From an uncultured Planctomycetales bacterium (GTDB lineage: Bacteria > Omnitrophota > Gorgyraeia > Zapsychrales > JAHFFX01): a stretch of DNA of 64,000 bases. Position 1 is the first letter of the stretch. Every line of letters starts with the position of its first letter. The notes under the pieces are model-generated. The model did not search any database. It was given only the letters and a program-made list of their open reading frames with translations, and was not told the DNA's origin. The stretch is taken from the NCBI GenBank assembly GCA_964612665.1, contig CAZTCI010000001.1:712624-776623 (forward strand). Reading direction: 5' to 3'. The position numbers were made by a program, and so were the translations under genes. This document shows, one piece after another, positions 9,237-34,267 of this stretch.

Positions 9237-9344
9237 GAACCCAAAATTGCACTAGCCAAATTACAAAATTACGGGCGCAAAAAAGCAGATTTTGGGGAAT
9301 TCTGGAACTGAGCCAAAGGTTAAAGAATTTTTTTTAGGTAATAA

Positions 9345-9921: not shown

Positions 9922-10806
9922 CTATTGTTTAGTCAGCTGGGCGAGAGGATTATTTTCAACGAAATCGAGGAATATTGGGCCCGCCACCAAGATACCTACA
10001 ACTGGGAAGATAAAAAACAAAAGTGGGACAAGCATTTTAAGAGGCGCTTTCATGGCCAACTGTTCCCCACGGCGAAAACGGGCTAGCCGCATGTCTTCCG
10101 ATAAAATATTTAAAGCTTCAGCGACCGAGGTTCCCATCTTGTCCGCCTGGATTAACGTTCTGGCCAGCGTTGAAAGATCCGGGAGGTCATACTTTACCGC
10201 CAAATCTTTAATGGCATCACGCCGCGCTTTACCGAGATTAATTTCTTGCATGACAGTATTAAACTCGCGAATAATAACAGATGGCGGCGATTTTTCAACA
10301 ACCCATTTCATTGCCAACATAAAGTCCAGCCCGGCATTAACACAAAGGCGGAGCAAATCAATCGCATCAGGCAATTCTTTTATAATGGCGCTTTTAATCT
10401 TTTTAATTTTACCTTTGAGCCAAAACTCCGGAGCCATATATGCGATTCCGAAACAGCAGGCCAGCCAAATAATAAACATCTGCGGACTTACCATATTAAA
10501 GGTCAGAATAATAAAAAAAACAAAAACCAATTCCTTGACCAAAAAATATTCTTCAGGCGTCATGTTGACATGAGCGATTTCCAAATCTTTCAGCATTCTG
10601 ACCCGAACCGGCCCCATTGTAAAAGGCTTATTAATAAGGGCGAGCTTTCTAATAAAAGAAAGAATCGATCTTTTTCTTTTTAAAGCCCCGACCTCAAAGC
10701 CCGTAAACCCCTGCAACCGCGGCCGGCTTTCCCACTCTATCGGCGAGACGCCCAGTATAAAACTAAACACCGAGATAAATACCATCATAGAAAAAACTGT
10801 AATCAT
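9922..10806 (-). CDS. tadC: Flp pilus assembly inner-membrane platform protein, TadC/TadB family (T2SS F domain)
   Basis: 294 aa, multiple TM segments; GspF/TadB-C-like cytoplasmic domain (…AIIKELPDAIDLLRLCVNAGLDF…); adjacent to second T2SSF paralog. Confidence 0.75.
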   Translation of the reverse strand: MITVFSMMVFISVFSFILGVSPIEWESRPRLQGFTGFEVGALKRKRSILSFIRKLALINKPFTMGPVRVRMLKDLEIAHVNMTPEEYFLVKELVFVFFIILTFNMVSPQMFIIWLACCFGIAYMAPEFWLKGKIKKIKSAIIKELPDAIDLLRLCVNAGLDFMLAMKWVVEKSPPSVIIREFNTVMQEINLGKARRDAIKDLAVKYDLPDLSTLARTLIQADKMGTSVAEALNILSEDMRLARFRRGEQLAMKAPLKMLVPLLFFIFPVVGILVAGPIFLDFVENNPLAQLTKQ

Positions 10807-10818
10807 ATTTTCCTCACT

Positions 10819-11682
10819 TTAAAAATTCTTAAAGGTGCTGATCTTCCAAATAAAAAAAGCACCGATGATTTCTGAAAAAAAGGAATAAATCAACATCGCC
10901 CGGCCCAAAGACGACTTCATCATATGGATTAAAAAATCCGGTTTTGTCGACTGAACAATAATAAGAAATCCTATCGGCAAACAGGACATGACAATGCCTT
11001 GAATTTTTCCCTGCAATGTCAATGTATCGATATTTTGCTGGATTTTTTTATTTTCGCGAATGGTGTTTACGATGCGCGTAAAAATTGCCGGCAGATTGCC
11101 TCCCGTTTCGCGCGCCAAAAGAATCGCCGTAATGGTTTGCTGAAGTGCCGGCGAAGGCATTCTTTTATATAAATGATTGAATGCCTCGTCGAGAGCCACT
11201 CCCATTTTATTTTCACTTAAAACCATGCCGAATTCCTGATCAATCGGCTCCGGCATTTCCTCGACGACCGCTTCCATCGCTTGAACCAAACTCAATCCAC
11301 CTCGAAACGAACTCGACATAATCATGAGTGCGTCGACCAGTTGATTGGCAAATTTTTCTTTTCGTTTGCTGATCAGCATTTTGGCATAAAAACCGGGCAA
11401 TATAAAACCAATCATAAAAAGAGCAATGACACCTATGAGCCGGATAGCCGGTGGAAAAACTATAAAACCGATAATGGCCCCAATGACAGGCGCCAACAAT
11501 GAAGCGCCCGTCATTTTTTTGGAATCGGGTTTCATTAACATCCGTTCCATCTTAGTCGCAAATGTAGGGGCTGCGCGCCTTTCACCAATCACAACAGCAC
11601 GATTCGCAAAAAGGGGCATGGCCGTATAGCCCAAAATAAATACTGAAAGGAATATAAAAAAGAGGAGTATTGGAATGGCCAT
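10819..11682 (-). CDS. tadB: Flp pilus assembly inner-membrane platform protein, TadB/TadC family (T2SS F domain)
   Basis: 287 aa; TM helices plus T2SSF-like domain (…FANQLVDALMIMSSSFRGGLSLVQAME…). Confidence 0.75.
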   Translation of the reverse strand: MAIPILLFFIFLSVFILGYTAMPLFANRAVVIGERRAAPTFATKMERMLMKPDSKKMTGASLLAPVIGAIIGFIVFPPAIRLIGVIALFMIGFILPGFYAKMLISKRKEKFANQLVDALMIMSSSFRGGLSLVQAMEAVVEEMPEPIDQEFGMVLSENKMGVALDEAFNHLYKRMPSPALQQTITAILLARETGGNLPAIFTRIVNTIRENKKIQQNIDTLTLQGKIQGIVMSCLPIGFLIIVQSTKPDFLIHMMKSSLGRAMLIYSFFSEIIGAFFIWKISTFKNF

Positions 11683-12084: not shown

Positions 12085-12347
12085 CAAATCTCAAATGTCA
12101 AAATCCAAATCAATTCCAAATTTTTTAATCCCAAACTGCTCTGACTTCTTTGTATTTCGGATAATACTACTTAAAATCAACAACAACTCTGTACTTTCAA
12201 TGATTAACCAAACCAACTCATTCTTATGTAATTCTTCCTTTCGGCAAAATTAAAGGCCCTATCATAGATGTTGAATTTTCTATTGCTTGACATTGGAAAT
12301 TTAATGATTTATTTGTCATTTGACATTTGGTTTTTGTCATTAATTAA
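12085..12347. repeat. intergenic repeat element copy 1 (26-mer caaatctcaaatgtcaaaatccaaat ... 27-mer tgacatttggtttttgtcattaattaa, with ~180-bp insert between); putative promoter/operator
   Basis: Exact 26-mer at 12085-12110 and 27-mer at 12321-12347 are both repeated at 17655-17680 and 17710-17736. TGACA-N10-TGTCA inverted half-sites. Lies just upstream of the pilin gene 11728..12048. Confidence 0.7.
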
Positions 12348-18149: not shown

Positions 18150-18662
18150 TTAACGGTAACGGTTATCGGTTTTTTCAAAATTACTCCATGCCTCAGCCAA
18201 TTTATAAATCTGGCGACCAGATTTATCGTAAGCATCTATCAATTCATCGCAAAGTTTTATATCTACATTCTGTGGATAAATATCTCTACTTTGACTCAAA
18301 CTTACAATCATTTCATTAGATTCAGCCATTGCATCATCGAGATATTTTTGAAAGCCAGCTTTTTGATGCCGCTTTGCATATCCTTCAGCTATTAACCGCG
18401 GAATTGCTTTGGAAGCTCGGCGGAGCTGATCTATTATTGGCCTTTTCCTTTCCAAAGAAAGGTTGTTCTTTTCGTCATCGAAGAGAAAAGGCCTAATATT
18501 GAGTTTTGTTGCATCCTTTGGATTTACAAAACTCAATAAATCATCTTCTTCGCATTTTGGCAGACAGGGAAGAATCTTTTGCATAACAGTGGTCATTGAT
18601 TTATAACTATCTTGATAAACTGTTAAATCTCTAAAGCTGGTAATTCGCTTCTTTTCTTCCAT
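18150..18662 (-). CDS. four-helix-bundle protein (23S rRNA intervening-sequence protein / bAvd-like family)
   Basis: SFRDLTVYQDSYK … DQLRRASKAIPRLIAEGYAKRHQKAGFQKYLDDAMAESNEMIVSL matches the conserved QLrRAavSIpaNIAEGygR…F…A.GS..E core of this family. Confidence 0.65.
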   Translation of the reverse strand: MEEKKRITSFRDLTVYQDSYKSMTTVMQKILPCLPKCEEDDLLSFVNPKDATKLNIRPFLFDDEKNNLSLERKRPIIDQLRRASKAIPRLIAEGYAKRHQKAGFQKYLDDAMAESNEMIVSLSQSRDIYPQNVDIKLCDELIDAYDKSGRQIYKLAEAWSNFEKTDNRYR

Positions 18663-18733: not shown

Positions 18734-20119
18734 TCAATATCCCCGCGGGCCGAGATCTTGGACCCATTTACGCCCGCGGCCTTCCCAAACCCGGCTTCGA
18801 ACATACAAGGTTAAAGAGCCTTCGTCAAAACAAGTTTTATAAACATTGGCCGCTGAAAAACAATTGGCCGTGGGATCACTCCCCAGTCCCGGGGGCACAC
18901 ACACCTCCACGTCGGGATTCCACTGAGTATTAGGCTGATGAACCGGCGCGTCCCAAACCGCGCCACTCCCAGTGCCGCAAACAAATCCGGTATTTCTACT
19001 TAACTGAACAACCCGTTGAACGATGTCTGTAATATTTCTTCTTTGCGTACTTTTAACATTTTGAGTGGCACTAATAATTTTTCCTTCTTCAATTTGAAGG
19101 TACGTTCCATCTCTAGTGTAAGTCCATCCTTGAGTGCCTTCACTTGAAAAACCAGGCGCGGCGCCGGGACTTTTACGGTTATGGGTCATATCCAAATCGC
19201 CTTCTTGAAAATCCAAAACACGCAATAATTTAATAGGAACATTGCCTGAACCTGATTTGTTTTTGCTGTTGGGCGTATATCTTTTGCCCTTTATATCAAC
19301 CATTTCCAAAATTTGTTCTTCCTTTAAATCGTTGTCAACGTCAAGCGAGGCATTCTGGCCTGTCTGCAAATTAATTGAGCTCGTCGTGGCTTTCACCATC
19401 TGCCATTGCCACGTAAAAAGAGGACGGTCGGCGGGTGAAACAATCGTCGTGCCGTCGCGGTAAAGGTCAAAGCAAGTCAGACACGTGTTCCACTTACAAC
19501 GATCGCAGGCATTGGGATCCCAGGCGGTATTCACCTTTAAATTCGGACTAATAGAATACAGGGCCATACAGCCATTCCCTTTCCCATTGCAATCGGGAAT
19601 CCAATTGGGGTCTGTGTCATTTTGTATGTTGTATTCTTTAAAAGCTGCTGTTGTAAATTGAAAATGTAAGCCGTTAATAAAAAAATCGGTGCGGGGAAGA
19701 CTATCGTATTCACCATAGTCAATGGGCATGAAAAGATTTTTAGAAAATGTGGCTGAAGCTCCGACGATAAACGGCGAACGCGATTGGACACCGAATTTAC
19801 TCTCTTCAGCGCTTAAACGGTCTTCAACGATGAGGACACTGGCAATATTGCGCGAGGCGTTGCCGGGTTTTTTAGACATGCGGTTTTTTCCGGTTTCGGC
19901 GGCCCGCAGAGACGTGGCCATAGCCATACGCATCGCTTTCAATGATTCACTTTGCGAAGTTCCAGCACTTAATGCATAACGAATCATCATGCCTAACATA
20001 AAAATCAAAACAGCTCCAAAAACGGCGAGTTCAGTTGACGTTTGAGCTTTTGAGTAAATGCTCTTGAACAACTTAATATCCCCCAATAATTGTATCTCCC
20101 GTCTTCGTTTCGAGGGCAT
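18734..20119 (-). CDS. large TadE/TadG-like pseudopilin-family protein (about 445-461 aa), Cys-containing ectodomain
   Basis: N-term …LFKSIYSKAQTSTELAVFGAVLIFMLGMMI resembles the pilin leaders. Track start overlaps upstream pilin gene by 47 nt, so the real start may be an internal non-ATG codon. Confidence 0.5.
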   Translation of the reverse strand: MPSKRRREIQLLGDIKLFKSIYSKAQTSTELAVFGAVLIFMLGMMIRYALSAGTSQSESLKAMRMAMATSLRAAETGKNRMSKKPGNASRNIASVLIVEDRLSAEESKFGVQSRSPFIVGASATFSKNLFMPIDYGEYDSLPRTDFFINGLHFQFTTAAFKEYNIQNDTDPNWIPDCNGKGNGCMALYSISPNLKVNTAWDPNACDRCKWNTCLTCFDLYRDGTTIVSPADRPLFTWQWQMVKATTSSINLQTGQNASLDVDNDLKEEQILEMVDIKGKRYTPNSKNKSGSGNVPIKLLRVLDFQEGDLDMTHNRKSPGAAPGFSSEGTQGWTYTRDGTYLQIEEGKIISATQNVKSTQRRNITDIVQRVVQLSRNTGFVCGTGSGAVWDAPVHQPNTQWNPDVEVCVPPGLGSDPTANCFSAANVYKTCFDEGSLTLYVRSRVWEGRGRKWVQDLGPRGY

Positions 20120-20387
20120 CAGATCTGTCGACGCGGTTGGTCCAGACTCCGTTCAGCGTCGTGTCATTAACCGCAACAATTTGCATTTCTTCATTGGCAA
20201 CACGGCTATAGTTAATAATGGTATTTGAAACGCGCGGATCGTATTGGTCTCCTAAATCATCAACTGTACTTCGCCACCGTCCGGAGATGCCTCGTTTCAT
20301 ATAATTGCTCATCGCAATAAAAGCACCAATGATGACCATTATCAAAACCGTGTATTCAATCGTCGATTGTCCTTTGCGTTTAAACAT
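20073..20387 (-). CDS. Flp-type pilin paralog G (104 aa)
   Basis: MFKRKGQSTIEYTVLIMVIIGAF… (G/QSTI-EY); KRGISGRWRSTVDDLGDQYDP family motif. Confidence 0.7.
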   Translation of the reverse strand: MFKRKGQSTIEYTVLIMVIIGAFIAMSNYMKRGISGRWRSTVDDLGDQYDPRVSNTIINYSRVANEEMQIVAVNDTTLNGVWTNRVDRSDALETKTGDTIIGGY

Positions 20388-20423
20388 TGAATCCTCTTTT
20401 ATTTGAAAAGAATAAAAACAAAT

Positions 20424-20837
20424 TTAATTATCCGCATTAATGGTGTTTGAAAAACCTAAATTTGAAACTGAATTGGATATAACATCGCCGGAATCATTGT
20501 AAATAAAATCAATGGCGCCGGAATTTTCTTTCCGGCTTTTATTTGTATTAGACCTCGTCGCTGAATAGGCCTGCATCAAATAGCCGCCGTAAGGCACGAT
20601 CCGCTGGTCAGATTCATTTTGTATGCCAACCTGATCAGCCGTGACCTTAATAACACTTTGAATACCGCGCTTACAAGCGTTAAACATCGCAAACAAAACC
20701 ATGGTCACAATTCCAATTAAAAGCATGTACTCCATCATGCTCTGAGCGGTTTTATTTTTTAAGAAATATAGACGGGTGGACTCGGAAGAAGCCGCCGTTT
20801 CCGTCAATAAGAATTTTTTTTTATCGACAAATTTCAT
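20424..20837 (-). CDS. Flp-type pilin paralog F (start uncertain, up to 137 aa)
   Basis: …KNKTAQSMMEYMLLIGIVTMVLFAMF (A/QSMM-EY); CKRGIQS… motif; start codon overlaps stop of paralog E (TAATG). Confidence 0.55.
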   Translation of the reverse strand: MKFVDKKKFLLTETAASSESTRLYFLKNKTAQSMMEYMLLIGIVTMVLFAMFNACKRGIQSVIKVTADQVGIQNESDQRIVPYGGYLMQAYSATRSNTNKSRKENSGAIDFIYNDSGDVISNSVSNLGFSNTINADN

Positions 20838-21226
20838 TAATTACCGCCCGTCAAATTGAAGTCTCTCGGCGGCAATTGATTACTATCAGTGGTGACTCTA
20901 ACTTGGTCCGTAAATTTGTCGCCGAAGATACCTGTTGTGCCGCCACCTTGGAGCGTTTGAACGGAATTCATTAAACTATCGACATTGCTTTGTGTCTGCA
21001 CGTAGTAAGGTTCATACTCCTGTAAAATTACATTACCAAGTGTGGCCGTATTGCTTGTGGCAATGCTGTGAATCATATAATTCCGGGCATCCCAAATCCG
21101 TCCCTGCAAAGATCTTTTTACATAAACCGACATCGCCGAAATAACTGCAATCACTAAGAAAAAAGTGATCACATATTCTGAGGTTGCCTGTCCCAATTTA
21201 TGCAAAACAATTTTAGAGTGAAACAT
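20837..21226 (-). CDS. Flp-type pilin paralog E (129 aa)
   Basis: …HKLGQATSEYVITFFLVIAVISAM… ; KRSLQGRIWDA…EYEPYY motif. Confidence 0.65.
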   Translation of the reverse strand: MFHSKIVLHKLGQATSEYVITFFLVIAVISAMSVYVKRSLQGRIWDARNYMIHSIATSNTATLGNVILQEYEPYYVQTQSNVDSLMNSVQTLQGGGTTGIFGDKFTDQVRVTTDSNQLPPRDFNLTGGN

Positions 21227-21400
21227 GTCTTGTTGCTATCATTTTTGTAATTATATTTGTAATAAAAACGGCTATGATTCTGGTTTTGCTGAACGTTAAA
21301 AAGTGCTGTCCCAAAAAACATGGCTTACCCCTCGTCGGGTGACGATTGAGTAAGCCATGTTTTTTGATCTATAGAACAACCCAACTCTATTACCGACGAG

Positions 21401-21724
21401 TTATTTACCCCAGAATGTCTGGTCTACGTTGATAATAGTTGAATCTTGGTTAATTAAGGTTGTTTCATTGGTGGCCATTTCTGAGCGGCTGATACCTTTG
21501 TCAAAAGTTTCAAAGGTTCTACCCTTTGTCATTGTCGACTTGTTCGCCTTGGTGTTCCCTGGGTCAAATTGATCACCGATATCATCGGTAGCACTCTTTA
21601 ACCGGCCTTGAACACCGCGCTTAATGTAAACTTGAATGGACAAAAGAGCACCAATAATAATGATAATCAAAACAGCATACTCCAAGGTGCTTTGTCCTTT
21701 CATTTTTCTTAGCAATTTAAACAT
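21401..21724 (-). CDS. Flp-type pilin paralog D (107 aa)
   Basis: MFKLLRKMKGQSTLEYAVLIIIIIGALL; KRGVQGRLKSATDDIGDQFDP; AAGGAGG RBS upstream. Confidence 0.7.
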   Translation of the reverse strand: MFKLLRKMKGQSTLEYAVLIIIIIGALLSIQVYIKRGVQGRLKSATDDIGDQFDPGNTKANKSTMTKGRTFETFDKGISRSEMATNETTLINQDSTIINVDQTFWGK

Positions 21725-21782
21725 TGATTAGTCCTCCTTAAAATTAGACATAAAGTTGCTTGCTTAACAAATGAAGCGGGTA

Positions 21783-22139
21783 TTAATGGCCAAGAACTTC
21801 GCCAAAATTCCCGTAATTAGACTGTTGGAAACCACCTAGGTCTCTATTGCGTGTACTATTTTCCAACTGACTGACTACACCCTTGTCTAACTGTTGGGTC
21901 TGATTCATGTCTCTGGAAATAGCGTAATTACTTTGTAGATAATACGGTTCGTATTGATCCGTAGCGCCCAAGCTGGATGTTTGGCTGGTTAAAAATTTAC
22001 CAGCATCGCGGATTCTACCTTGAAGACTTCGTTGCGCATATGTCTGCATGGCAATGATAGCCGCGACAACCAAAGCGATCAAAAGTGCATATTCTGCAGT
22101 GTTCTGACCTTTCTTATTTCTATTTATTCTTTTAAACAT
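21783..22139 (-). CDS. Flp-type pilin paralog C (118 aa)
   Basis: MFKRINRNKKGQNTAEYALLIALVVAAIIAM; QRSLQGRIRDA…DQYEPYY; GGAGG RBS. Confidence 0.7.
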   Translation of the reverse strand: MFKRINRNKKGQNTAEYALLIALVVAAIIAMQTYAQRSLQGRIRDAGKFLTSQTSSLGATDQYEPYYLQSNYAISRDMNQTQQLDKGVVSQLENSTRNRDLGGFQQSNYGNFGEVLGH

Positions 22140-22192
22140 TTATTTTTCCTCCTCGATGTGAATAAAACAAACCTGATTTCCCATGATTTAAG

Positions 22193-22390
22193 TTATGGTG
22201 ATAATGGCCGAGAACCAGAAAGTCTTATTGACATGTTGTTCATGCCATTTGTACCTTGAGTCAAGGTAGCGTTAAGGCTAGTCTGGAAAATCCCAGTTTT
22301 ACTGGCCAAAAAGCCAAGTAAAACGACTACAACGGCCGTCACCAAGAGAATGTACTCCAGCGTTGATTGACCTCTTTTGTTTTTCAACAT
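22193..22390 (-). CDS. Flp-type pilin paralog B (65 aa, classic Flp length)
   Basis: MLKNKRGQSTLEYILLVTAVVVVLLGFL; AAGGAGG RBS 8 nt upstream. Confidence 0.7.
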   Translation of the reverse strand: MLKNKRGQSTLEYILLVTAVVVVLLGFLASKTGIFQTSLNATLTQGTNGMNNMSIRLSGSRPLSP

Positions 22391-22419
22391 TTATATTCCT
22401 CCTTGAACAAATAATGACG

Positions 22420-22584
22420 TTAATTATTGGCGAACTCCTCTTCAACCACCTTTTCGGTTGCCTGCACGGAACGGAACACGTAGGTGCTCATTGCGACCAT
22501 TGCAGCTGAGACTAAAGCGACAACGACGGCATATTCAATTAGGCTTTGTCCTTTTTTGCTTCGTAGTGTTCTTAAATGCCGCAT
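22420..22584 (-). CDS. Flp-type pilin paralog A (54 aa, classic Flp length)
   Basis: internal Met gives MRHLRTLRSKKGQSLIEYAVVVALVSAAMVAM…; track extension to 22686 runs through a terminator hairpin and is rejected. Confidence 0.65.
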   Translation of the reverse strand: MRHLRTLRSKKGQSLIEYAVVVALVSAAMVAMSTYVFRSVQATEKVVEEEFANN

Positions 22585-22672
22585 TGTGTTTTTCCCACGT
22601 GTTAAAAGGTGATCGTTGCCATCCTCTTGTGCAACCACAAGCAGGAGCTCCACGACCAGGCTGTATAAAAAA

Positions 22673-22698
22673 ACCCTTGAACACAATTGTGTTCAAGG
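22673..22698 (-). terminator. perfect 26-bp palindrome CCCTTGAACACAATTGTGTTCAAGGG followed by T7 on minus strand (intrinsic terminator, possibly also operator)
   Basis: stem 11 bp/loop 4; minus strand continues TTTTTTTATACAG; a related hairpin cccttgaacgctgtcaaggg lies at ~22839-22860. Confidence 0.6.
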
Positions 22699-22907: not shown

Positions 22908-24572
22908 CTAAATTAGGACATCCATAGCAAAAAAAGACCCAGACGGGTCTTGAATATTCATATTTTTAAGCATTTTGATCGCAAATTCAAGCTCTTTACG
23001 ATATTGATAATCAGTGGGAACTTGTAATTTCACAATAATCTTTTGACCTATTTTTTGGAAACGGCCCGCCAATTTGTAAAAACGTTCACACATTTGATTA
23101 AAATCAAGTTCTTTGCAATTTTGGCTAAAAAAGTGACATTTGGCATACTCATTTAAAGCTAAGCTTATAACAAACGCATTTTCCAAGAGAGTGGGCACTT
23201 GCATGGGGTCGGATGCTACCATTTTTTCGTAAAAATCGAATGGAATTATTGAATTTTTTATTTCTTTATTGTCCAAACTGTCATTTTTATTTAAAAGTAA
23301 TGAAAAATTCACATCTTCTTTATAATCAAAGTTAAGATTATTAGTAAAAATCAAGCTACTGACCGCGTTAACCTTATTTTCTTCGCTTAAAATAATCAAT
23401 TTTAGAGGAATTTCCTTTGTCACACCCAAAGTTTCACCTTGAACTTCATGCTCACCGACATAAAAAGTTTTGTCTAAATCCTTGCAATAAAATTTTTTTA
23501 ACTTTATGTCTTGCAGAATATTAGAAACGCTACTTATTCTTTCAGGTCTTGTCACAAATAAAAATTGTCGTTTCTTTTTGGGGATTACATTAAATTGGGC
23601 CAATTCGTTGTCATTTTGATCCAAAATTTCTAGTTTGGACATTTCATTAGAAATTCCTTCTAAAGATTCCACTAATTTAAGCTCATTAGGTATATTTTCA
23701 GCCAATCCTTTGTCATATATGGTAATGTAATCCAAATTTGTAATAAAACGTCGTGTTACTTGTTTAATAAATCTTCCTAAAGAAAGGCCTGCGCCTCTTT
23801 CGCCAGATTGAAAAACCACCTGTTCTCTAGCGTCTAAGAAAACCTCTGTTTTGTCTTTTAAAGTTATCTTAAGCGAATTTGCTTCAGCAAAAATTTGTGG
23901 AATCTCATTGCCAACAACAAGAGACAATGTTCTCAAATCAGAAATGCTGTCTAGCAATTTTAAGAGCCTATCAAAACGAATCTTCTCTATCCCACTAAGT
24001 AAAGCCAACCCTGTTCCTTTATACGAATTGAAATCCTCAGGTTTGTTAATACCAAAAGACGGTGCCCATAACAAAACTTCACCAAGTTGGTTCACCTCGT
24101 CGGGATTAAAAATGTTTCCTTCCAAAAATTTTTCTAGAAATCTTCCCATTAAAAATCGTTCACCCAAATCCCATTCGGCAGCCTTTAAAAAAAACAGCCC
24201 TAATCTATCATGCATGGATTCGATTTTTTCTGCTTTTAAATCTTTTTTAGAAGATGTCCAAACGAGAGGGGATTCTTTTTTAGGCGCAAGGAGCAGGTTA
24301 GGTATGGTGAAAAGCTGTTGCTTTTTCTCGACGGGAATTTGAAATTTTTTGACTTTTTTATCTGTAAGGACGGCTGTGCGCCCAACTGGATTGCTCAACT
24401 GAGCGTCTTTGATGATTTGGTTTATGGCGGATTTTGAAACATTGATTTGAAATTTTTCTTCAACAATAGCAACTAAACGCCGGCAGCTTAATTGAGCGTC
24501 AGATTTTTTCTGATCAATAATAAAATCAATGACTTCTTTTCTTAATTTATAAACAACGCCCATGGAAACCAT
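22908..24572 (-). CDS. AT-rich hypothetical protein (554 aa) with N-terminal helix-turn-helix; ORFan-like
   Basis: Strongly K/N/I-rich and much lower GC than its neighbours. N-term LRKEVIDFIIDQKKSDAQLSCRRLVAIVEEKFQINVSKSAINQIIKD resembles resolvase/transposase-type HTH. No catalytic motifs recognised. Confidence 0.5.
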   Translation of the reverse strand: MVSMGVVYKLRKEVIDFIIDQKKSDAQLSCRRLVAIVEEKFQINVSKSAINQIIKDAQLSNPVGRTAVLTDKKVKKFQIPVEKKQQLFTIPNLLLAPKKESPLVWTSSKKDLKAEKIESMHDRLGLFFLKAAEWDLGERFLMGRFLEKFLEGNIFNPDEVNQLGEVLLWAPSFGINKPEDFNSYKGTGLALLSGIEKIRFDRLLKLLDSISDLRTLSLVVGNEIPQIFAEANSLKITLKDKTEVFLDAREQVVFQSGERGAGLSLGRFIKQVTRRFITNLDYITIYDKGLAENIPNELKLVESLEGISNEMSKLEILDQNDNELAQFNVIPKKKRQFLFVTRPERISSVSNILQDIKLKKFYCKDLDKTFYVGEHEVQGETLGVTKEIPLKLIILSEENKVNAVSSLIFTNNLNFDYKEDVNFSLLLNKNDSLDNKEIKNSIIPFDFYEKMVASDPMQVPTLLENAFVISLALNEYAKCHFFSQNCKELDFNQMCERFYKLAGRFQKIGQKIIVKLQVPTDYQYRKELEFAIKMLKNMNIQDPSGSFFAMDVLI

Positions 24573-25075: not shown

Positions 25076-25426
25076 TTAAGCAGCTAGAATTTGAATAGAA
25101 TCGCCTAATTCAGTTTTGGATTTTGAAATAGTTTTAACAGGAAGTTCAATCGCGCGGTTGGCTTTTAAAAAAATAGGGCTGAGCCGAAATGGTTGTATCT
25201 CCTCGAGTAATCCCACCACTTTTCCAGAGTTATCGATAAAAATAACATCAATAGCAAATCGCATAAACAACATGTGAATTGACTGACAATGAGTAATGAT
25301 CAGCCCTTCTCCGTCGACGATAGATTGTCGGTTTAATAAACCAACCATACGGGTTCTGAAAGTATCCGCGAGGACTGCGCGGTCAGCAATAATTATTTTG
25401 CGGGTGGAATTAAATACGGTAAGCAA
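25076..25426 (-). CDS. DUF192 (COG1430) domain protein
   Basis: …ADTFRTRMVGLLNR…GEGLIITHCQSIHMLFMRFAIDVIFIDNSGKVVGL…AIELPVK matches DUF192 core. Confidence 0.6.
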   Translation of the reverse strand: MLTVFNSTRKIIIADRAVLADTFRTRMVGLLNRQSIVDGEGLIITHCQSIHMLFMRFAIDVIFIDNSGKVVGLLEEIQPFRLSPIFLKANRAIELPVKTISKSKTELGDSIQILAA

Positions 25427-25434
25427 GAGAGTAT

Positions 25435-27603
25435 TTATGGTGTAAAAATGTTTTTATCCAAAGCGATGCCTTTAGAAGAAAAATCTTCGTAACATTTGGG
25501 AACATAACCTGTGGTTTTATAGTCACCTAGAATTTTCCCGTCGCTGTCTGTTCCTAGACGTTCAAAAATAAAAATGTCGCGTAAATCCAACTGGTGTGTC
25601 TTCTGATCAACGCCGGCCACTTCGGTTATGCCGGTTATTTTTCTTGAACCATCTGAAAAACGGTTGACTTGAACGATGATGTCGATGGCTGAGCCGATCA
25701 TTTCATACATGGCGCTTAAGGGAAGTTCAACGCCCGTTAAAAGCATCATGGCCGTTAAACGAACCAAAACATCGCGTGTGGTATTGGCGTGGATTGTCGT
25801 CAAGGAACCATCGTGACCTGTGTTCATAGCCTGCAACATATCTAATACTTCTGCGCCGCGGCACTCACCAATGACAATCCTATCAGGACGCATACGAAGC
25901 GTATTCACAAACAAATCACGAATAGAAACAGCGCCTTTTCCTTCAATGTTCGCCGGGCGTGCTTCCAACCGGCCCCAATGACTGTACGGTTTAAGCCGCA
26001 ATTCGGCGGCGTCTTCTATGGTGATAATGCGTTCTCCGTCGGGAACAAAAAGGGAAATAATGTTAAGCAATGTTGTTTTACCGGCGCCTGTACCGCCGGA
26101 AACAATAATGTTACTTCTTCCCAAAACTGCGGCATGAAGAAAATCAGCCATCGGCTGAGACAAACTCTTAAAGCGATGGATCAAATCGTCAATCGTATAA
26201 CGTTCTTGGCTGAATTTACGGATCGTGACCATTGGTCCATTTAAAGATAACGGACGAATAATAGCATTAATACGAGACCCGTCGGGCAAACGCGCATCAA
26301 CCATCGGTGTCGACTCATCAATACGCCGGCCCAAGGGCGCAACAATACGGTCAATAACCGAACGAACCTGTTGTTCGGAAATAAACCGCCGATTGGTTAA
26401 AATTAATTTCCCATGTTTTTCAATGTAGATCTCATCCTTCTTATTAACCATGATATCGGTGACGTCTGAATCTGCCAAAAACTCTTCGATAGGACCAAGC
26501 CCTAGCGTTTCGTTTACAATTTCTTTAACCAGCCGGGTTCGCTCTTCATGGGAAGAAATGATAGCGCCCGCTTCCTCGGCGAGAATATTGCTGACAATTT
26601 TTTCAGTTGTCTCACGGATTTTCTGAAACTGCTGCGGGTTCGCCAAGGCTTCCGGAGTCAGGTCTTTTAAATCCATCTTGCCTAACAACTTTTCATGGGT
26701 CTTCTTTTTAAGCCGAACGACTTCGTCTTCTTCGTTAACATTGTAAATTTTATCTTTCCCTTTTTCCTGTACGCCTTGAGCAATGCCAAATTTTTCCCAA
26801 AACTCACCCGGCTTACCTAAATCTTCTGTTGTTCTTAATTTAGCTATGTCGGTCGCCTGCACAAAAAGTCCAGGCGCATTTAAATCGTTGACCATCTTAT
26901 TAAAAGCCGCCGCGACTTTGCTGCGCGGACTATCAACGACACAGGGAACGCCGCGGTTTAAAGCCATTCCAACCGCTTTTCCGTCGGAAGGAATTTGGGC
27001 AAAAATTTCGCAAGCCAAGGCCGCCTTAACTTCCTGCCAGGCAACCCCGCCATAACTTTCAGCACGGTTTAAAATTAACCTGACCATTTTGAGAGGGAAA
27101 TGCAGGCTCTGTAAAACTTCTAAGGCCGTTCGGATTTGATAAACAGCCAGAATATCTGGTGTCGCAATAAGAAAAATTAGATTGGAATAATCTAAAATGG
27201 TGATCAGCGTCTCGCTAAAGGCCTTACCGCCGTCGATAATAATGTAATCGTAAAGCTGGCCAACTTTTTTAAGAAAGGGTTTAATATTGTCAGGTGTAAT
27301 GTGACCAACTTGGCGGACGTGCGTGACGGCGGGGAGAAAATCAAATCCAGCAGAATGCGCCACAACATATCTTTTAATAATCGTGGGGTCGTTGTCTTTT
27401 TCTATTTCAGCCAAAAGATCAACGATAGCTAGACGGGGGGACAAATTGAGCATCCGGGCCATATCCTGAGCGGCCTGGAAGTCCATGTCCAAAAGCAAAA
27501 CCTTGTGGCCGCTCAACGCCAATGCCGTCGAGAGATTGACACACACAAAAGTTTTGCCAACCCCACCTTTATTACTAAAAACTGCTACGCTTTTTGCAGG
27601 CAT
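25435..27603 (-). CDS. tadZ-tadA: fused TadZ/CpaE-like ParA-family ATPase (N-term, about 260 aa) + TadA/CpaF secretion ATPase (C-term); 722 aa
   Basis: N-term deviant Walker A VFSNKGGVGKT (MinD/ParA/CpaE). C-term SGGTGAGKTTLLN…ITIEDAAEL…TGHDGSLTTIHANT (VirB11/CpaF family). One uninterrupted ORF. Confidence 0.8.
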   Translation of the reverse strand: MPAKSVAVFSNKGGVGKTFVCVNLSTALALSGHKVLLLDMDFQAAQDMARMLNLSPRLAIVDLLAEIEKDNDPTIIKRYVVAHSAGFDFLPAVTHVRQVGHITPDNIKPFLKKVGQLYDYIIIDGGKAFSETLITILDYSNLIFLIATPDILAVYQIRTALEVLQSLHFPLKMVRLILNRAESYGGVAWQEVKAALACEIFAQIPSDGKAVGMALNRGVPCVVDSPRSKVAAAFNKMVNDLNAPGLFVQATDIAKLRTTEDLGKPGEFWEKFGIAQGVQEKGKDKIYNVNEEDEVVRLKKKTHEKLLGKMDLKDLTPEALANPQQFQKIRETTEKIVSNILAEEAGAIISSHEERTRLVKEIVNETLGLGPIEEFLADSDVTDIMVNKKDEIYIEKHGKLILTNRRFISEQQVRSVIDRIVAPLGRRIDESTPMVDARLPDGSRINAIIRPLSLNGPMVTIRKFSQERYTIDDLIHRFKSLSQPMADFLHAAVLGRSNIIVSGGTGAGKTTLLNIISLFVPDGERIITIEDAAELRLKPYSHWGRLEARPANIEGKGAVSIRDLFVNTLRMRPDRIVIGECRGAEVLDMLQAMNTGHDGSLTTIHANTTRDVLVRLTAMMLLTGVELPLSAMYEMIGSAIDIIVQVNRFSDGSRKITGITEVAGVDQKTHQLDLRDIFIFERLGTDSDGKILGDYKTTGYVPKCYEDFSSKGIALDKNIFTP

Positions 27604-27607
27604 TTTT

Positions 27608-29827
27608 TTATTTTTGCAAACTAAAAACGATTGGTATTGTTAAATCCAATTCTTGGAGGTTAGTATCCGCAGGAAACGCGGTGTAAGGGGCCAGGCTTTT
27701 GGCGGTTGTAAGAGCAGCTTCATCGAAGATGTCGTGGCCAGAGGACTCTTTTACAGCAGCATAAGCTAAAGTCCCATCGCTTAAAATATGCAGCATCAAT
27801 TTTACGGTGCCTTCCCAATTGTATTGCCTTGCCTCGTCGGGATAATTGATGGCACTAGCGATTTTTTGTTGGACGGCGGCAGCGTAATTTTGACTTGATG
27901 AACTCTTAGCAGCCGCCGGTTTTGAAACTTTCTGACTATAAACAATAGGAACGTTCAACACCAAATCATCTAAATTTAATTTCAAAGGAAACGCGTCATA
28001 AGGTGAAAGAACTTGTGCCGTATGAAGCGCATCTTTATCAAAAATATTGTATCCTGAGGATTCTTTAATTTGTGAATCAGCTAATGAACCATTTTTTAAA
28101 AGATGTAAGCTCAATGTAACCGTTCCCTCCCAGCCTTTTTCTTTAGCTTCCGGCGGGTAGGTGATAGCCTTAGAAATTTTTTCTTGGATTGTTTTTGAAT
28201 AAGCGTCGATCAGGTCCTTTTGTTCAGCATTATTTCCGGATGCCCCTGCTTGTTCTCCTGAAGATTGATCTGTCGCTTCGGCGGTGGCATCTTGAAGCGG
28301 TATGGCATCAGCATTTTCAGACATTGAGCTTTGTGTTGGCATTCTCGACGGAGGGACTGATGTTTCAGATGTCATTGATGAATCTGATGACGACACTGAA
28401 GCGGCGTCGGATGTGGAAGATTCCGTTGTCTTAGCAGCAGGCGGAGGAACCTCTTTCGTTTTTTGCCGAAGAATCGTAGGCGTTACGGAAATAATTAACT
28501 CAGTGTCTTGATTGTTAGACGAAGGCGTTTTACGGGATCGGAAAACCGCACCCACAATAGGAATATCGCCCAGGAAAGGAACCTTGCGGACTGTTTCTCC
28601 CTCAACATGCTTAATCAAGCCAGCCAGAATAATCGTCTGCTGGTCGTCTAAAAGCAGCTGCGTTTGTGCCGTGCGGGTAGCAAAGGCAGGAACTTGCCCG
28701 ACGGAATGCGTTGGATCAACTTCGCTGACCTCGGTATTCATGACGACATTGACTTTATCCTGTTGGATTGTGGGGGTGATCGTTAGACTGATACCAAAAT
28801 CTTTAAACTCAACATTAGTCTGCACATTACCACCAACGGTCGTAGATGTCGTACTGATTGGAACCTGTCCTCCGACGAGAAAACTGGCCTCCTTACCGCT
28901 TTTGACGACCAATTTAGGTTTTGAAAGGACCCGGCCTTTTCCTTCTTCGACGACTGCATTAATAACGGCAGAAACAGATGTTGTTCGTCTAAGTTTGGCT
29001 ACTTTAAAAATGCTGTCTGCAAAAGGAATAGAACTTTGTGCTGTGCTGTCGACAAGCCCTTTTCCAGGCAACCCCTCGGTAATATTAATTTGATCAACCC
29101 AGTCTAAGCCGATGCTTTTGGATGCGGTGGCATTTAACTCGGCGAGCTGAACATCAACCTGAACCAAGTCGTTGCTGATATCTTCACGCAAAAGATTAAT
29201 CACATTGGTCATGTAAGGATGAATAATAGCGTCGGCCTCGGCTTTCTTTTGTTCACTTAAATTACCCGAAGCCACGACCTTACCTTCGTAAAGGTTCACT
29301 TCAAGATTAACTCCGTCGATCTTGGCGACTTTGAAAAGTTCTTCCAGCCGGGTTTTTAAAATATTTAAATCCTCGGCGTAAACACGGATCATTATTGTCC
29401 GCTTGCCATATTGGTCCCACACAAATAAAGCTGATTGTCCTGGTTTCTTGGCCAGCAAGAGGATTTCATCATTGGTGACATTCGCGATGTCCGCAATGTC
29501 AGGATCACTTACAGAAACACGCACTAATGAATAGGCTTTAATCGGAGTGAGTTCTCCTTTAAGCATGTGAACTTCGTCTTGATGTAGGATGTCAGGAGGA
29601 AGGTCTTTGGAGTCTTGCTTAGCATCTTGTTTCGTATCTTGGCTGGCGGTCTTGTCCTCGCCAAAAATTTCTTTCGGAGCAATCCATAGAGTTTCCATTA
29701 AAATGAAACCCATCAAAACAACCCACGCACAGCTCTTATTGATTTTTTTATCAAAAGCTCGGTGATTTAGGCTAGATCTCTTTTCCTCGACGGAATAAAA
29801 ATCTATAAGCTGTTTTTTATTTTTCAT
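27608..29827 (-). CDS. cpaC: Flp pilus secretin CpaC/RcpA-like with two C-terminal TonB C-terminal (TonB_C) domains; 739 aa
   Basis: Secretin core …VRKVPFLGDIPIVGAVFRS…ELIISVTPTIL. Two repeats at the C-terminus, YPPEAKEKGWEGTVTLSLHLLKNGSL…ESSGYNIFDKDAL and YPDEARQYNWEGTVKLMLHILSDGTL…ESSGHDIFDEAAL, each fit the TonB_C signature. Confidence 0.75.
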   Translation of the reverse strand: MKNKKQLIDFYSVEEKRSSLNHRAFDKKINKSCAWVVLMGFILMETLWIAPKEIFGEDKTASQDTKQDAKQDSKDLPPDILHQDEVHMLKGELTPIKAYSLVRVSVSDPDIADIANVTNDEILLLAKKPGQSALFVWDQYGKRTIMIRVYAEDLNILKTRLEELFKVAKIDGVNLEVNLYEGKVVASGNLSEQKKAEADAIIHPYMTNVINLLREDISNDLVQVDVQLAELNATASKSIGLDWVDQINITEGLPGKGLVDSTAQSSIPFADSIFKVAKLRRTTSVSAVINAVVEEGKGRVLSKPKLVVKSGKEASFLVGGQVPISTTSTTVGGNVQTNVEFKDFGISLTITPTIQQDKVNVVMNTEVSEVDPTHSVGQVPAFATRTAQTQLLLDDQQTIILAGLIKHVEGETVRKVPFLGDIPIVGAVFRSRKTPSSNNQDTELIISVTPTILRQKTKEVPPPAAKTTESSTSDAASVSSSDSSMTSETSVPPSRMPTQSSMSENADAIPLQDATAEATDQSSGEQAGASGNNAEQKDLIDAYSKTIQEKISKAITYPPEAKEKGWEGTVTLSLHLLKNGSLADSQIKESSGYNIFDKDALHTAQVLSPYDAFPLKLNLDDLVLNVPIVYSQKVSKPAAAKSSSSQNYAAAVQQKIASAINYPDEARQYNWEGTVKLMLHILSDGTLAYAAVKESSGHDIFDEAALTTAKSLAPYTAFPADTNLQELDLTIPIVFSLQK

Positions 29828-29852: not shown

Positions 29853-30650
29853 TTATAATTCCCGGCCCCCGCGAAATATTTGAATAACCGGCTTAGCTTC
29901 TTCAGCGGCTGGTTCGAATGAACTGGTTTTCGCCTTTGTCCCGCCAAGTTCAGTACCTTGTCTTTCCAAAACATAGTCCGCGAGCGTTTGCCAATTATAA
30001 GGAGGTACCATAAATGATTCTGTTTCGGAAGGAGAACGTAACGCCAACTGGAGCTTACCATTTTGCTGAACAAAACTCAGCAGCCCTGCTTCTTCTGGAT
30101 CCAGCGCAAAAGTCACAGTCAAATCCTTGGTCTGCTGCTGGGCTTCATAAACACCAGGAGAATTCACATTCGTCCCGACAGCTAAGACTTGAACGTTTTG
30201 AAAAATCATGGCTGTAATTGTTTGGGCTGGTTGATATCCGACTTGCTGAGAACCGGGAGGTGTCATCTGCGCGAGAATGTCGACGAAATCGCCGGGATTG
30301 ATTAAACCACCGACGGCGGCGAGAGAATCAATTCGAACAGTGACGGCTCTCTTGCCCGCAGGTGTTTTGACAGCTAATGATGATTGGGGAATAATGGCAG
30401 CCGGCCCTTTTTCGGCGGCGGCTTTTTGCGCGGCAGCAATTGCCTGTTGGCGCACAGTGCCTAATTCTGTTTTTAATGCGGTGATTTCTTCTTTGAGGGG
30501 TTCAACATTTTTTTGAATTTCTTGAGAGGCAACTTCTTCTTTTTTAGTGATTTCACTTTGAATATAATTTCCGGCTCCGATGGCGGCGATTAATCCTATG
30601 GTCAACGCGATCACAATGATAACAATCGTTCTTCGCTGTTCATTGGTCAT
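29853..30650 (-). CDS. cpaB: Flp pilus assembly protein CpaB/RcpC (SAF domain)
   Basis: N-terminal TM, coiled region, …AVTVRIDSLAAVGGLINPGDFVDILA… typical of CpaB. Confidence 0.7.
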   Translation of the reverse strand: MTNEQRRTIVIIVIALTIGLIAAIGAGNYIQSEITKKEEVASQEIQKNVEPLKEEITALKTELGTVRQQAIAAAQKAAAEKGPAAIIPQSSLAVKTPAGKRAVTVRIDSLAAVGGLINPGDFVDILAQMTPPGSQQVGYQPAQTITAMIFQNVQVLAVGTNVNSPGVYEAQQQTKDLTVTFALDPEEAGLLSFVQQNGKLQLALRSPSETESFMVPPYNWQTLADYVLERQGTELGGTKAKTSSFEPAAEEAKPVIQIFRGGREL

Positions 30651-31633
30651 AACTTGACTCCTTCTAAAAGGGATTCATTACGTGTGACTGGTTTCTTTTG
30701 TTCCAGTTCTTTAAGATAACTTTCAACGGTTTGCTGCTGTTTAATTTGGAGCAATCCGTTTTTAATATCGTTTTTCACGTCGAGGAAACCTAATTGTTTC
30801 CCGCCCTTTTTCTCCTCAAGTTTTACAATCGAGTACCCTTCCGATCCTTTAAAAACCGCGCTGACATCACCGACTTCCAAATTCAAAACCGCCGCGGCCG
30901 TGGCTTGATCTAAATCAGCTCCCTTAATTAAACCTAAATCTCCGCCTTTAGCCGCTGTTTTTCCTTTGGAACGTGCTTGGGCAGTTTGCGCAAAGTCTGC
31001 GCCTTTTAAAACATCAACCAGAATATCTTTCGCCTCGGGTTGAGTAGGAACAACGATCGCGCGCAAATGATATTCGGCCGGCTCAACAAACATATTTTTG
31101 TTTTGGTTAAAATAATCTTGGACTTCGTTGTCCGTGACGGTGACACTTGTGATCAAATTATTAACATTTTCTCGGACAAGAAGCGTCCGACGGAATTCGC
31201 TAACCGCATCTTGGATTTCTTTTTTATTTCCCAAACCTTTTTCTTCAGCATCCATGACCATCAACTGCTGCCTGACCAATTCATCTAATACGAGCTTCTT
31301 GGATTCGGGTTTCTTTATGTCAAAATCAGGCACGACGTCTTTTAAATTCTTAAGCCGGTCTTTAAATTCATCGACTGTGATTGACCAGCTGCCGACACTT
31401 GCCAGGACATCGGCTTGCGTGTTTAAAGCCGCAGCTGCGCTGGCTTGGTCTTTAATTTTTTCCGTCGAGGTTTTAACCGGCGGTGGTTGAACTGCTTTGT
31501 CTTCGCTTGTGCTGGCTGTTGTTTTTTTGTTTTTGTTAAAAATTGATTCGATCGTTGAAGAAATTTGATCACAGCCAGCAATAGTTAAACAAAATAAGGC
31601 GGCCGCGACAATAAAAATTCTATCTTTTTTCAT
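30647..31633 (-). CDS. lipoprotein peptidyl-prolyl isomerase (SurA/PrsA-like, parvulin-type)
   Basis: lipobox LTIAGC; SurA-N-like region and rotamase segment …GGDLGLIKGADLD…GYSIVKLEE. Confidence 0.6.
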   Translation of the reverse strand: MKKDRIFIVAAALFCLTIAGCDQISSTIESIFNKNKKTTASTSEDKAVQPPPVKTSTEKIKDQASAAAALNTQADVLASVGSWSITVDEFKDRLKNLKDVVPDFDIKKPESKKLVLDELVRQQLMVMDAEEKGLGNKKEIQDAVSEFRRTLLVRENVNNLITSVTVTDNEVQDYFNQNKNMFVEPAEYHLRAIVVPTQPEAKDILVDVLKGADFAQTAQARSKGKTAAKGGDLGLIKGADLDQATAAAVLNLEVGDVSAVFKGSEGYSIVKLEEKKGGKQLGFLDVKNDIKNGLLQIKQQQTVESYLKELEQKKPVTRNESLLEGVKL

Positions 31634-31724: not shown

Positions 31725-32771
31725 TTAACAGGGTGGCCCGCCGCCTCCTGCTCCCTTAGGACATCCATGGCAGTCAAAATTTTTATTTCTAAAACCCTGA
31801 TTAAATCGTTGATCGCAATTAAAATTAGTAGCTGGATTATTCCAATCCGTTGACCAGACAGGACAGCTTTTTCCCCTAATAATACAATTTGCCGGTCCTA
31901 GACCTCCAGCAGGAGGAACGTTGGAACACTTTACAGTACCTATTACCGTGTCACTCGAACTTGGAAAACAAGAAGTCCCTTCCTGAAAATATATTTCCCC
32001 CGTAGCTGTATTGTTGGCAACGCAACCCCAATTGCTTCCGCCCGACATATTAACATCACAACCCGCAATAAATGGGCATTCTGGAGGACATCGAAGGGCT
32101 GGATTTACATCGGTGCCTTGGCAATCCCCGTTAACATTTGTAAGTGGTATATTACATTCCGGCGGCTGGCATCTTTGCAATTGAGGATCAAAGGGGTAAG
32201 CTCCGTCGCACACCGCTTCGCATTTGGCACCTGTACAATTAGCGACGGGGATCCACGGCGTTGGCGAGGGAACATTCTGGTCTGAGCCAGTGCAAATCGT
32301 TGCATGGTCAGGAATTGAACCGGTGCATCCAGCCGGACAGATAGGATCAGGAACACAATTTTTGGGCTGAAGATTATTGCCGCATTGAATTAGTGTGCTT
32401 TGTCCCGTCGGACAGCCGCCGCTCGCTCCGCACAATTTCGTACAGCAGGTATCATCAACAATACAACTGGTTTCCTGAGGTTCACAATCAAGAGGCGTGC
32501 AATTTTTTTGATACAGCTTTTCCGTCGGTTTACACGATCCCAATCCGCAGCCAATCGGTTCTTTCGGGCATTTACATGTGGGCGCCGGAAAATCAAAGCC
32601 TCCTTTTATCATTGGGTCGGTGTAAGAATCGTCGGCAACATCTTCCCACATTTTAAGATGGGCATTGACCGAGCGAATAACATACGGCCCCATGACAACA
32701 ATCCCAACCATGACCAAAACCATAACCGTAAGATATTCAAGCGTTGATTGGGCTTCTTTGGATAGGCGCAT
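31725..32771 (-). CDS. large Flp-motif pilin-like cysteine-rich protein (348 aa)
   Basis: MRLSKEAQSTLEYLTVMVLVMVGIVVMG (A/QSTL-EY + helix); rest has >40 Cys in CxxC/CPxxC patterns. Confidence 0.6.
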   Translation of the reverse strand: MRLSKEAQSTLEYLTVMVLVMVGIVVMGPYVIRSVNAHLKMWEDVADDSYTDPMIKGGFDFPAPTCKCPKEPIGCGLGSCKPTEKLYQKNCTPLDCEPQETSCIVDDTCCTKLCGASGGCPTGQSTLIQCGNNLQPKNCVPDPICPAGCTGSIPDHATICTGSDQNVPSPTPWIPVANCTGAKCEAVCDGAYPFDPQLQRCQPPECNIPLTNVNGDCQGTDVNPALRCPPECPFIAGCDVNMSGGSNWGCVANNTATGEIYFQEGTSCFPSSSDTVIGTVKCSNVPPAGGLGPANCIIRGKSCPVWSTDWNNPATNFNCDQRFNQGFRNKNFDCHGCPKGAGGGGPPC

Positions 32772-33937: not shown

Positions 33938-34267
33938 TTAATCAACCAACATGGCTTTAAGAATTTCTTTCATGCTACGTATTGTTTCTTTATCTAACTT
34001 TCCCATCTTTTTTACTAAGCGCCTTTTATCAATGGTGCGAATTTGATCTAAAACAATCCAACCATCTCTTTCCTGAAATTTAACTGAAACTCTCGTGGGA
34101 TAATGATGAGAACGTGATGTGAGGGGAGCAATAATAACGGTGCTTACATTTTGATTTATTTCGTCGGGAGAAATAACAACACAAGGGCGTGTTTTTTTAA
34201 TTTCGCTGCCAAGCGCAGGGTCCAGCGTAACCCAAAAAACATCATACTGCTTTACTACCATTCCCAT
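33938..34267 (-). CDS. mazF: type II toxin MazF/PemK-family endoribonuclease
   Basis: 109 aa; …[31 protein letters not shown]… PemK/MazF signature; 4-nt region overlap with upstream antitoxin. Confidence 0.8.

Follow-up and report, generated by a model that had tools for sequence, protein, structure and literature searches.

Within a 64,000-nucleotide stretch of DNA assigned to an uncultured Planctomycetales bacterium (contig CAZTCI010000001.1 of assembly GCA_964612665.1, positions 712,624 to 776,623; hereafter the window, to which all positions refer), one gene of a Tad pilus locus encoded a CpaC/RcpA-type secretin that carried two tandem TonB C-terminal (TonB_C) domains at its C-terminus. 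An earlier note on this DNA had proposed this architecture from the letters alone, and profile, fold and context evidence bore it out. The protein is best described as a variant of the Tad secretin, because it lacks the tail with which secretins of this kind bind the pilotin TadD. [quoted passage not shown] The gene and the parts of its product are listed below, with positions in the protein in brackets and confidence given as the predicted local distance difference test (pLDDT) score.

27608-29827, minus strand: secretin gene, encoding 739 aa (CpaC/RcpA-type Tad secretin plus two C-terminal TonB_C domains) in a single uninterrupted open reading frame (ORF)
29666-29743, minus strand: N-terminal hydrophobic helix (aa 29-54), evident in the sequence and a helix in the AlphaFold2 model; presumed Sec signal or anchor
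29183-29575, minus strand: presumed periplasmic N-domains (aa 85-215), with Pfam T2SS-T3SS_pil_N at 100-149 and pLDDT above 90
28466-28954, minus strand: Secretin domain (aa 292-454), the outer-membrane channel core (Pfam 7e-42; Foldseek matches to secretins)
28208-28465, minus strand: linker (aa 455-540), rich in Ser, Ala, Thr, Glu and Pro, disordered, at the position of the secretin S-domain, with pLDDT below 50 over most of 458-532
27932-28207, minus strand: TonB_C domain 1 (aa 541-632), 55.9 bits alone in Pfam, boundaries set with a custom hidden Markov model (HMM), pLDDT 92-97
27893-27931, minus strand: inter-domain linker (aa 633-645; 13 residues), short and flexible, with pLDDT below 50 at 635-642
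27620-27892, minus strand: TonB_C domain 2 (aa 646-736), 66.7 bits alone in Pfam, followed by three terminal residues

Two TonB_C stretches were recognized in the protein by Pfam (4.8e-33) and by the NCBIfam model tonB_Cterm (1.8e-28), and TIGR01352 scored 98.7 bits against a cutoff of 27.1. The segment 27608-28260, in which the earlier note had placed the repeats, corresponds to residues 523-739 plus the stop codon. When the repeats were scanned individually, repeat 1 (aa 523-640; 6.1e-15) and repeat 2 (aa 641-739; 2.6e-18) each scored well above the PF03544 gathering score of 24.6, and they covered profile positions 2-77 or 3-79 of 79. The two repeats were identical to each other at 44 of 82 positions. 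The solved sequence nearest to domain 2 was the C-terminal domain of Helicobacter pylori TonB (6sly/5lw8), and domain 2 ended with the predicted beta-strand LTIPIVFSL, 3-4 residues before the C-terminus of the protein.

The remainder of the protein was clearly that of a Tad secretin. PF00263 (Secretin) scored 143.3 bits against a cutoff of 27.5, and a single pil_N-type N-terminal region was present (PF13629, T2SS-T3SS_pil_N; 42.3 bits against a cutoff of 23). Both parts of the motif that had been quoted for the channel were found, VPFLGDIPIVGAVFRS at aa 416-431 and VTPTIL at aa 448-453. The closest solved relatives of the core in a phmmer search were 8jvb (1.6e-35) and RcpA 8odn (4.6e-30), and the NCBIfam equivalog models for GspD, PilQ, MshL and SctC all scored far under their own cutoffs. 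The STN domain (PF07660) was not detected in the secretin by Pfam, nor were the wall-binding domains LysM, OmpA_C, SPOR and AMIN.

A full-length AlphaFold2 model was built with an alignment of 38 sequences, and the last 217 residues were modeled separately, in both cases as monomers. The C-terminal part was resolved into two units of helix, helix, beta, beta, helix, beta, and each had the alpha/beta fold of TonB and TolA C-terminal domains, a three-stranded sheet packed on helices. In the full-length model both TonB_C domains were predicted with pLDDT 92-97, and the predicted template modeling (pTM) score was 0.38 overall and 0.47 for the C-terminal model. Because the domains were confident, the pLDDT of the linkers was below 50 and the pTM was low, the models describe two well-folded TonB_C domains strung on flexible linkers, neither held in a set orientation to the other. 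An arrangement of the tandem domains as a fixed pseudo-dimer was also considered and was unsupported by the same pTM scores and by the low pLDDT of the inter-domain linker.

To place this protein among its relatives, a collection of 5.8 billion proteins was searched and the 120 best relatives were analyzed. All 120 contained the pil_N, Secretin and TonB_C domains. According to the custom TonB_C HMM, 100 of these had one TonB_C domain and 20 had two, the two-domain proteins being the 20 top-scoring ones. One genome per GTDB species was also scanned, which confirmed 566 secretin relatives; locus counts given here refer to the best 80. The secretin carried at least one TonB_C domain in all 80 loci (72 with one domain and 8 with two). 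The loci also shared gene order: a SurA-like lipoprotein was encoded in 73, CpaB adjacent to the secretin in 79, a fused CpaE-CpaF protein in 78 and a DUF192 protein in 65. Forty-seven of the loci were labeled Omnitrophota or Omnitrophica and 4 had other names, while the 29 labeled 'uncultured Planctomycetales' are taken to be carrying a placeholder. A Tad secretin with at least one TonB_C domain is thus standard across an Omnitrophota-wide Tad locus. The earlier note's author had been unaware of such a fusion in Tad secretins; at the level of databases it is not rare, but no paper describing it was found.

Metagenome assemblies are in general open to mis-assembly and mis-called genes, and a fusion may also be a decaying, functionless remnant. 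These explanations can be dismissed here for practical purposes. The ORF was uninterrupted, and the identical protein (P0001 in our numbering, as found in public data) was present on four independently assembled contigs from NCBI and Logan; the fusion is therefore no assembly artefact. The presence of TonB_C in every one of the 80 loci, the 100 secretin fusions among the best 150 cluster representatives described below and the conservation of the TonB_C domains, which matched that of the core, already refute the idea of a remnant.

Mean pairwise identity across the family was 58-63% for the TonB_C domains, 61.5% for the secretin core, 44% for the N-domains and 13% for the linker. In other words, the TonB_C domains are conserved as strongly as the channel core and more strongly than the N-domains, and the linker is hypervariable. 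Linker length ranged from 35 to 196 aa across the family, with a median of 53 against 86 aa in this protein, and the inter-domain linker measured 13-37 aa in 20 two-domain homologues. The terminal strand (TVPIVYSL) was nearly invariant in the family, about 4 residues from the C-terminus.

In a neighbor-joining tree of the individual domains from the 20 two-domain proteins, all domain-1 copies fell into one clade and all domain-2 copies into another, and the copies within one protein were only 44-61% identical. Together these results point to one old duplication after which both copies were kept. The sequences thus indicate that the two-domain form marks one clade, with a single old duplication in its ancestor; a single TonB_C domain is the ancestral state and two domains are the state of the clade to which the window belongs. 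A recent internal duplication, the other origin considered, was ruled out by the separate domain clades and the low identity within proteins.

The tandem region of 217 residues was also compared, with no word index, to 1.84 billion cluster representatives (E ≤ 1e-10). It matched 294 clusters, and secretin fusions made up 100 of the best 150. The other 50 of the best 150 were fragments, secreted proteins with 2-7 TonB_C domains in tandem, one fusion to a BlaR1 peptidase and three fusions to OEP channels; none had the appearance of a canonical TonB.

Some of these relatives were unusual in their own right. In P0199, P0219 and P0236 a TolC-like OEP channel was preceded by 2-3 N-terminal TonB_C domains, which ranked with the nearest relatives of those on the secretin. 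One of these OEP-TonB_C genes (locus L081, 6001-8391) adjoined a giant gene of at least 2294 aa. P0126, P0203, P0214 and P0244 (and P0266, 1183 aa) were secreted proteins built from 4-7 TonB_C domains in tandem, and Pfam recognized no other domain in them; among such proteins, one was labeled Omnitrophota and one candidate division KSB1. P0159 (1091 aa) and P0181 (1045 aa) were secretin-TonB_C proteins with 300-450 further residues after the TonB_C domains that had no Pfam match; one cluster member of these was labeled an archaeal metagenome-assembled genome, which is probably a binning error.

The position of the TonB_C domains can be compared with that of the tail of RcpA. The RcpA of P. aeruginosa ends in a short S-domain with random-coil structure, and its final four residues are the binding site for the pilotin TadD, a TPR lipoprotein; assembly of the secretin fails without this interaction (PMC10499894). 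TonB and TolA bind their motor with an N-terminal SHLS helix, span the periplasm with a Pro-rich region and grip their outer-membrane target with the C-terminal domain by beta-strand addition (PMC12204202). Beta-strand addition is the only binding mode that has been shown experimentally for the TonB_C fold. Pfam was run on nearly all ORFs of at least 100 aa in the 64-kb window, and no TPR or TadD-like pilotin gene was detected there. A tether and TonB_C domains at the position of the RcpA S-domain, the lack of a TadD-like gene in the locus and the presence of only the gripping end of TonB lead us to infer a docking role.

The mechanism that would follow can be outlined. In an Omnitrophota-type bacterium, the secretin would form the outer-membrane pore through which a Tad/Flp (type IVc) machine passes its pilus. 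A long disordered tether and one (ancestral) or two (this clade) TonB_C domains stand where the TadD-binding S-domain tail is found in Pseudomonas RcpA. A pore of 13-15 subunits would then have 13-15 or 26-30 TonB_C domains hanging below the outer membrane. Each of these may dock by beta-strand addition onto a periplasm-exposed strand of a putative envelope protein. Such docking could fix the pore, help assemble it or both, in place of the pilotin and S-domain and of the modules that anchor other secretins to the wall. The earlier note's suggestion that the domains could anchor the channel forms part of this explanation and is compatible with all of the findings.

The note's other suggestion, coupling to an energy-transducing partner, did not find support. 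In this alternative TonB_C would link the secretin to a motor of the ExbBD/TolQR type driven by the proton motive force, for instance via a TonB-box-like strand on a motor-bound protein. It would suit the presence of true TonB_C domains with the conserved YP motif, and genetic links between TonB paralogues and the function of type IV pili have reportedly been made in Pseudomonas and Acinetobacter. However, the motor-binding element of TonB and TolA is the N-terminal SHLS helix (PMC12204202), and the secretin had neither this helix nor a Pro-rich rod. Its N-terminal helix (aa 29-54, ..SCAWVVLMGFILMETLWIAPKE..) contained no His and no SHLS motif, and 7 of the 86 residues of the linker were Pro (about 8%; 9.5% for linkers across the family), so that the secretin cannot itself be driven by ExbBD. 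The Pfam survey of the window detected no MotA_ExbB/exbB, ExbD, tolQ/tolR or TonB-dependent receptor gene, and the custom HMM found no second TonB_C ORF, either in the window or in the 10-kb flanks of the 80 loci; those flanks were not searched for motor genes. The full-length TolA model (TIGR02794, tolA_full) scored 51.1 bits against a cutoff of 59.45, with only the C-terminal part matching, and the nearest relatives of the domains were all motor-less, being either secreted or attached to outer-membrane proteins. Energy coupling of the secretin is unlikely, and very little weight is given to this alternative.

The main rival to docking on an envelope protein is a direct anchor in the cell wall, in which the TonB_C domains would bind peptidoglycan and many low-affinity copies per ring would hold the pore against retraction of an adhesive pilus, much as PilQ is held by its AMIN domains or by the LysM protein TsaP. 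The C-terminal domain of E. coli TonB has reportedly been proposed to bind peptidoglycan. The tether, both at its median length and in this protein, is long enough to reach the wall layer, and with one or two TonB_C domains per subunit binding would be multivalent. Related TonB_C domains on OEP channels and on a Wzi-like barrel (PMC12419801) are the pattern expected of a generic tether between outer membrane and wall, and no peptidoglycan-related factor is known for Tad machines (PMC12307814). Conversely, none of the solved complexes recovered for the TonB_C fold contained peptidoglycan, a literature search pairing the TonB C-terminal domain with peptidoglycan and LysM gave nothing, and the absence from the secretin of the recognized wall-binding domains noted above also speaks against it. 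A direct wall anchor is regarded as possible but doubtful.

A partner within the machine itself was also considered. The TonB_C domains might bind to a strand in the machine, be it in the N-domains of the secretin, in its gate region or in the CpaB ring, and thereby stabilize the oligomer or control its opening, in the way that S-domains of the GspD type wrap around their neighbors. The S-domain position suits contacts to neighboring subunits, CpaB was adjacent to the secretin in all but one of the 80 loci, and in Pseudomonas the interaction of CpaB/RcpC with the secretin occurs by beta-strand completion (PMC12307814). Against this, the low pTM and linker pLDDT of the monomer models left no confident contact of the TonB_C domains with the rest of the protein. 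In addition, related TonB_C domains occurred on unrelated proteins (OEP and poly-TonB_C), which suggests a partner outside the Tad machine. Regulation within the machine is rather improbable.

Docking on an envelope protein in place of a pilotin is favored over these alternatives, but several points weigh against it. The apparent absence of a pilotin rests on Pfam in a 64-kb window, and a pilotin could lie elsewhere or be too divergent for detection. The docking partner and its binding by TonB_C are both predictions, and direct binding of peptidoglycan fits the data equally well. The occurrence of TonB_C domains on a second family of channels, the OEP proteins, argues for a generic envelope anchor over a substitute for a pilotin that is specific to secretins. 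Finally, that the C-terminus lies in the periplasm is an extrapolation from what holds for other secretins.

A broader and more speculative possibility, which we consider doubtful, is that motor-less TonB_C domains on outer-membrane channels (Tad secretins and OEP proteins) and secreted poly-TonB_C proteins may together represent a previously unrecognized envelope-tethering system in Omnitrophota and relatives. It would be a TonB-derived alternative to anchoring of the Lpp/OmpA/Pal or pilotin type and would take up the force exerted when an attachment pilus retracts in ultra-small, probably predatory or parasitic cells.

The secretin gene was encoded in a tightly packed operon on the minus strand. 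The other genes of the Tad locus and its edge are as follows.

30647-31633, minus strand: SurA-like peptidyl-prolyl isomerase lipoprotein with a lipobox (..AGC|D; Pfam Rotamase_2, SurA_N), the first gene of the conserved block, before CpaB
29853-30650, minus strand: CpaB/RcpC, of the periplasmic alignment ring (Pfam RcpC 6e-26; TIGR03177 over its cutoff), ending 26 nt upstream of the secretin
25435-27603, minus strand: 722-aa fusion of CpaE/TadZ (MinD-like) with the CpaF/TadA ATPase; its start lies 5 nt downstream of the stop codon of the secretin
25076-25426, minus strand: DUF192 protein (Pfam), a member of the conserved block, after CpaE-CpaF
22908-24572, minus strand: 554-aa protein with no Pfam match; homologues at the matching relative position in 59 of 80 loci
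20073-22686, minus strand: at least seven Flp-like pilin paralogues, whose translations show N-terminal motifs of the K/GQSTLEY type (such as GQSTLEY, GQSTIEY and GQNTAEY) followed by a hydrophobic helix
18734-20119, minus strand: 461-aa protein with no Pfam match; homologues at the matching relative position in 40 of 80 loci
18150-18662, minus strand: gene of the '23S rRNA-intervening-sequence protein' family, which separates the pilin array from the large unmatched proteins within the Tad locus
14826-17657, minus strand: 943-aa protein with no Pfam match; homologues at the matching relative position in 17 of 80 loci
12344-14797, minus strand: 817-aa protein with no Pfam match, in the Tad locus
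10819-11682 and 9922-10806, minus strand: the platform proteins TadB and TadC, respectively (Pfam T2SSF 1.5e-13 and 1.1e-17 for TadC and TadB)
3-9251, minus strand: stop-free reading frame, at least 3083 codons long, running off the left edge of the window, downstream of TadC
33938-34267, minus strand: MazF/PemK toxin gene, just outside the Tad locus

The CpaE-CpaF fusion matched Pfam AAA_31/ParA at 4-241 and T2SSE at 368-644 as well as the TadA family of NCBIfam (9.4e-96), and it measured about 720 aa in the 78 loci that had it, wherever the contig was complete. The SurA-like lipoprotein is a candidate for a dedicated chaperone or pilotin-like factor of the secretin. A strict lipobox pattern was found in 49 of 71 homologues, and a GCD-type motif in most of 30 N-termini listed. 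Its signal in the window reads ..LTIAGC|D, with Asp at position +2. None of the five Flp-like pilin paralogues that were scanned had a Pfam match. A 348-aa Cys-rich protein (31725-32771, minus strand) also had a Flp-like N-terminus (AQSTLEY) and no Pfam match; L002 and L003, the two-domain loci closest to the window, were the only ones with full-length-like homologues of it. The long frame downstream of TadC probably belongs to the 'giant genes' that have been described next to Omnitrophota pilus and secretion loci (bioRxiv 10.64898/2026.06.07.730766).

The right half of the window contained housekeeping genes around the replication origin (dnaA, dnaN, dciA, gyrB, gyrA, parAB, yidC). Between 36533 and 48593, gyrA, gyrB, dciA, dnaN and dnaA were encoded on the minus strand, followed by yidC, parA and parB on the plus strand. 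In this neighborhood the GC skew changed sign, and GC fell to 0.31-0.34 at 42-48 kb. The distance from the Tad locus to dnaA was 10-35 kb. In V. archaeovorus LiM the Tad locus lies at 12-30 kb of the genome record (PMC10066038).

Sequences of the fusion are public by the hundred under automatic names, and no description of it was found in the literature searched. Relatives with names were labeled 'TonB family protein [Candidatus Omnitrophota]' or 'pilus assembly protein CpaC', and the former label hides the secretin and misleads genome surveys. The main paper on Omnitrophota genomics treats Tad and RcpA with no mention of TonB, and describes these bacteria as nanobacteria that are abundant but uncultivated and that are believed to attach to host or prey by means of their Tad pili (PMC10066038). 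A 2026 preprint reports 'TonB C-terminal domain' ORFs beside giant genes and does not mention a secretin (bioRxiv 10.64898/2026.06.07.730766), and the evolution of TonB and TolA was surveyed in 2025 with no reference to secretins or Omnitrophota (PMC12204202). Secretins are paradigms of assembly and gating, and the Tad machine is the least understood of the type IV filament systems. To our knowledge, no wall anchor is known for the Tad machine and no pilotin is known for it outside the Proteobacteria. The phylum-wide replacement of the pilotin-binding tail by TonB/TolA-type domains offers a testable handle on how the pore is targeted and mechanically fixed, and is a case in which the TonB C-terminal fold is reused without its motor. 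These results should be relevant to specialists on secretins and type IV pili and to the cell biology of Omnitrophota.

Among known systems, the secretin shares a pil_N-type N-domain and the secretin core with P. aeruginosa RcpA, solved with TadD (8odn), and the secretin of Acidithiobacillus caldus (8jvb/9wfd). Its operon follows the logic of RcpA/CpaC Tad systems in having CpaB/RcpC, a TadA-type ATPase, TadB/C and Flp-like pilins, although CpaE/TadZ and CpaF/TadA, which are separate proteins in model Tad systems, are fused into one. The C-terminus sets it apart from RcpA, with a tether of 35-196 aa (across the family) and one or two folded TonB_C domains where the S-domain would be.

Textbooks connect secretins with the Ton system through the STN domain ('Secretin and TonB N-terminus short domain'), a link in name only. 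STN is a different domain from TonB_C, which certain secretins, and also TonB-dependent transducers, carry N-terminally, and it does not correspond to the fusion described here. Compared with TonB and TolA themselves (C-terminal domains 5lw8, 9ddz, 2grx and 1xx3; TolAIII 4g7x and 6s3w), the secretin has no motor-binding SHLS helix and no Pro-rich rod that spans the periplasm, and its TonB_C domains, here in tandem, are tethered to an outer-membrane protein rather than to an inner-membrane motor.

The AMIN domains of PilQ, TsaP (LysM) and ExeA/GspA are also periplasmic modules that fix or assemble a secretin, but the analogy is functional only. Their folds are unrelated to TonB_C, AMIN is N-terminal, TsaP and ExeA are separate proteins, and wall binding is established for those modules. 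Similar arrangements are the TolC-like OEP fusions (P0199, P0219 and P0236) and the Wzi-like barrel with TonB_C found in FCB bacteria (PMC12419801), in which a motor-less TonB_C is likewise attached to an outer-membrane channel or barrel; the carrier proteins are different, and in the OEP fusions the domains are N-terminal, in 2-3 copies.

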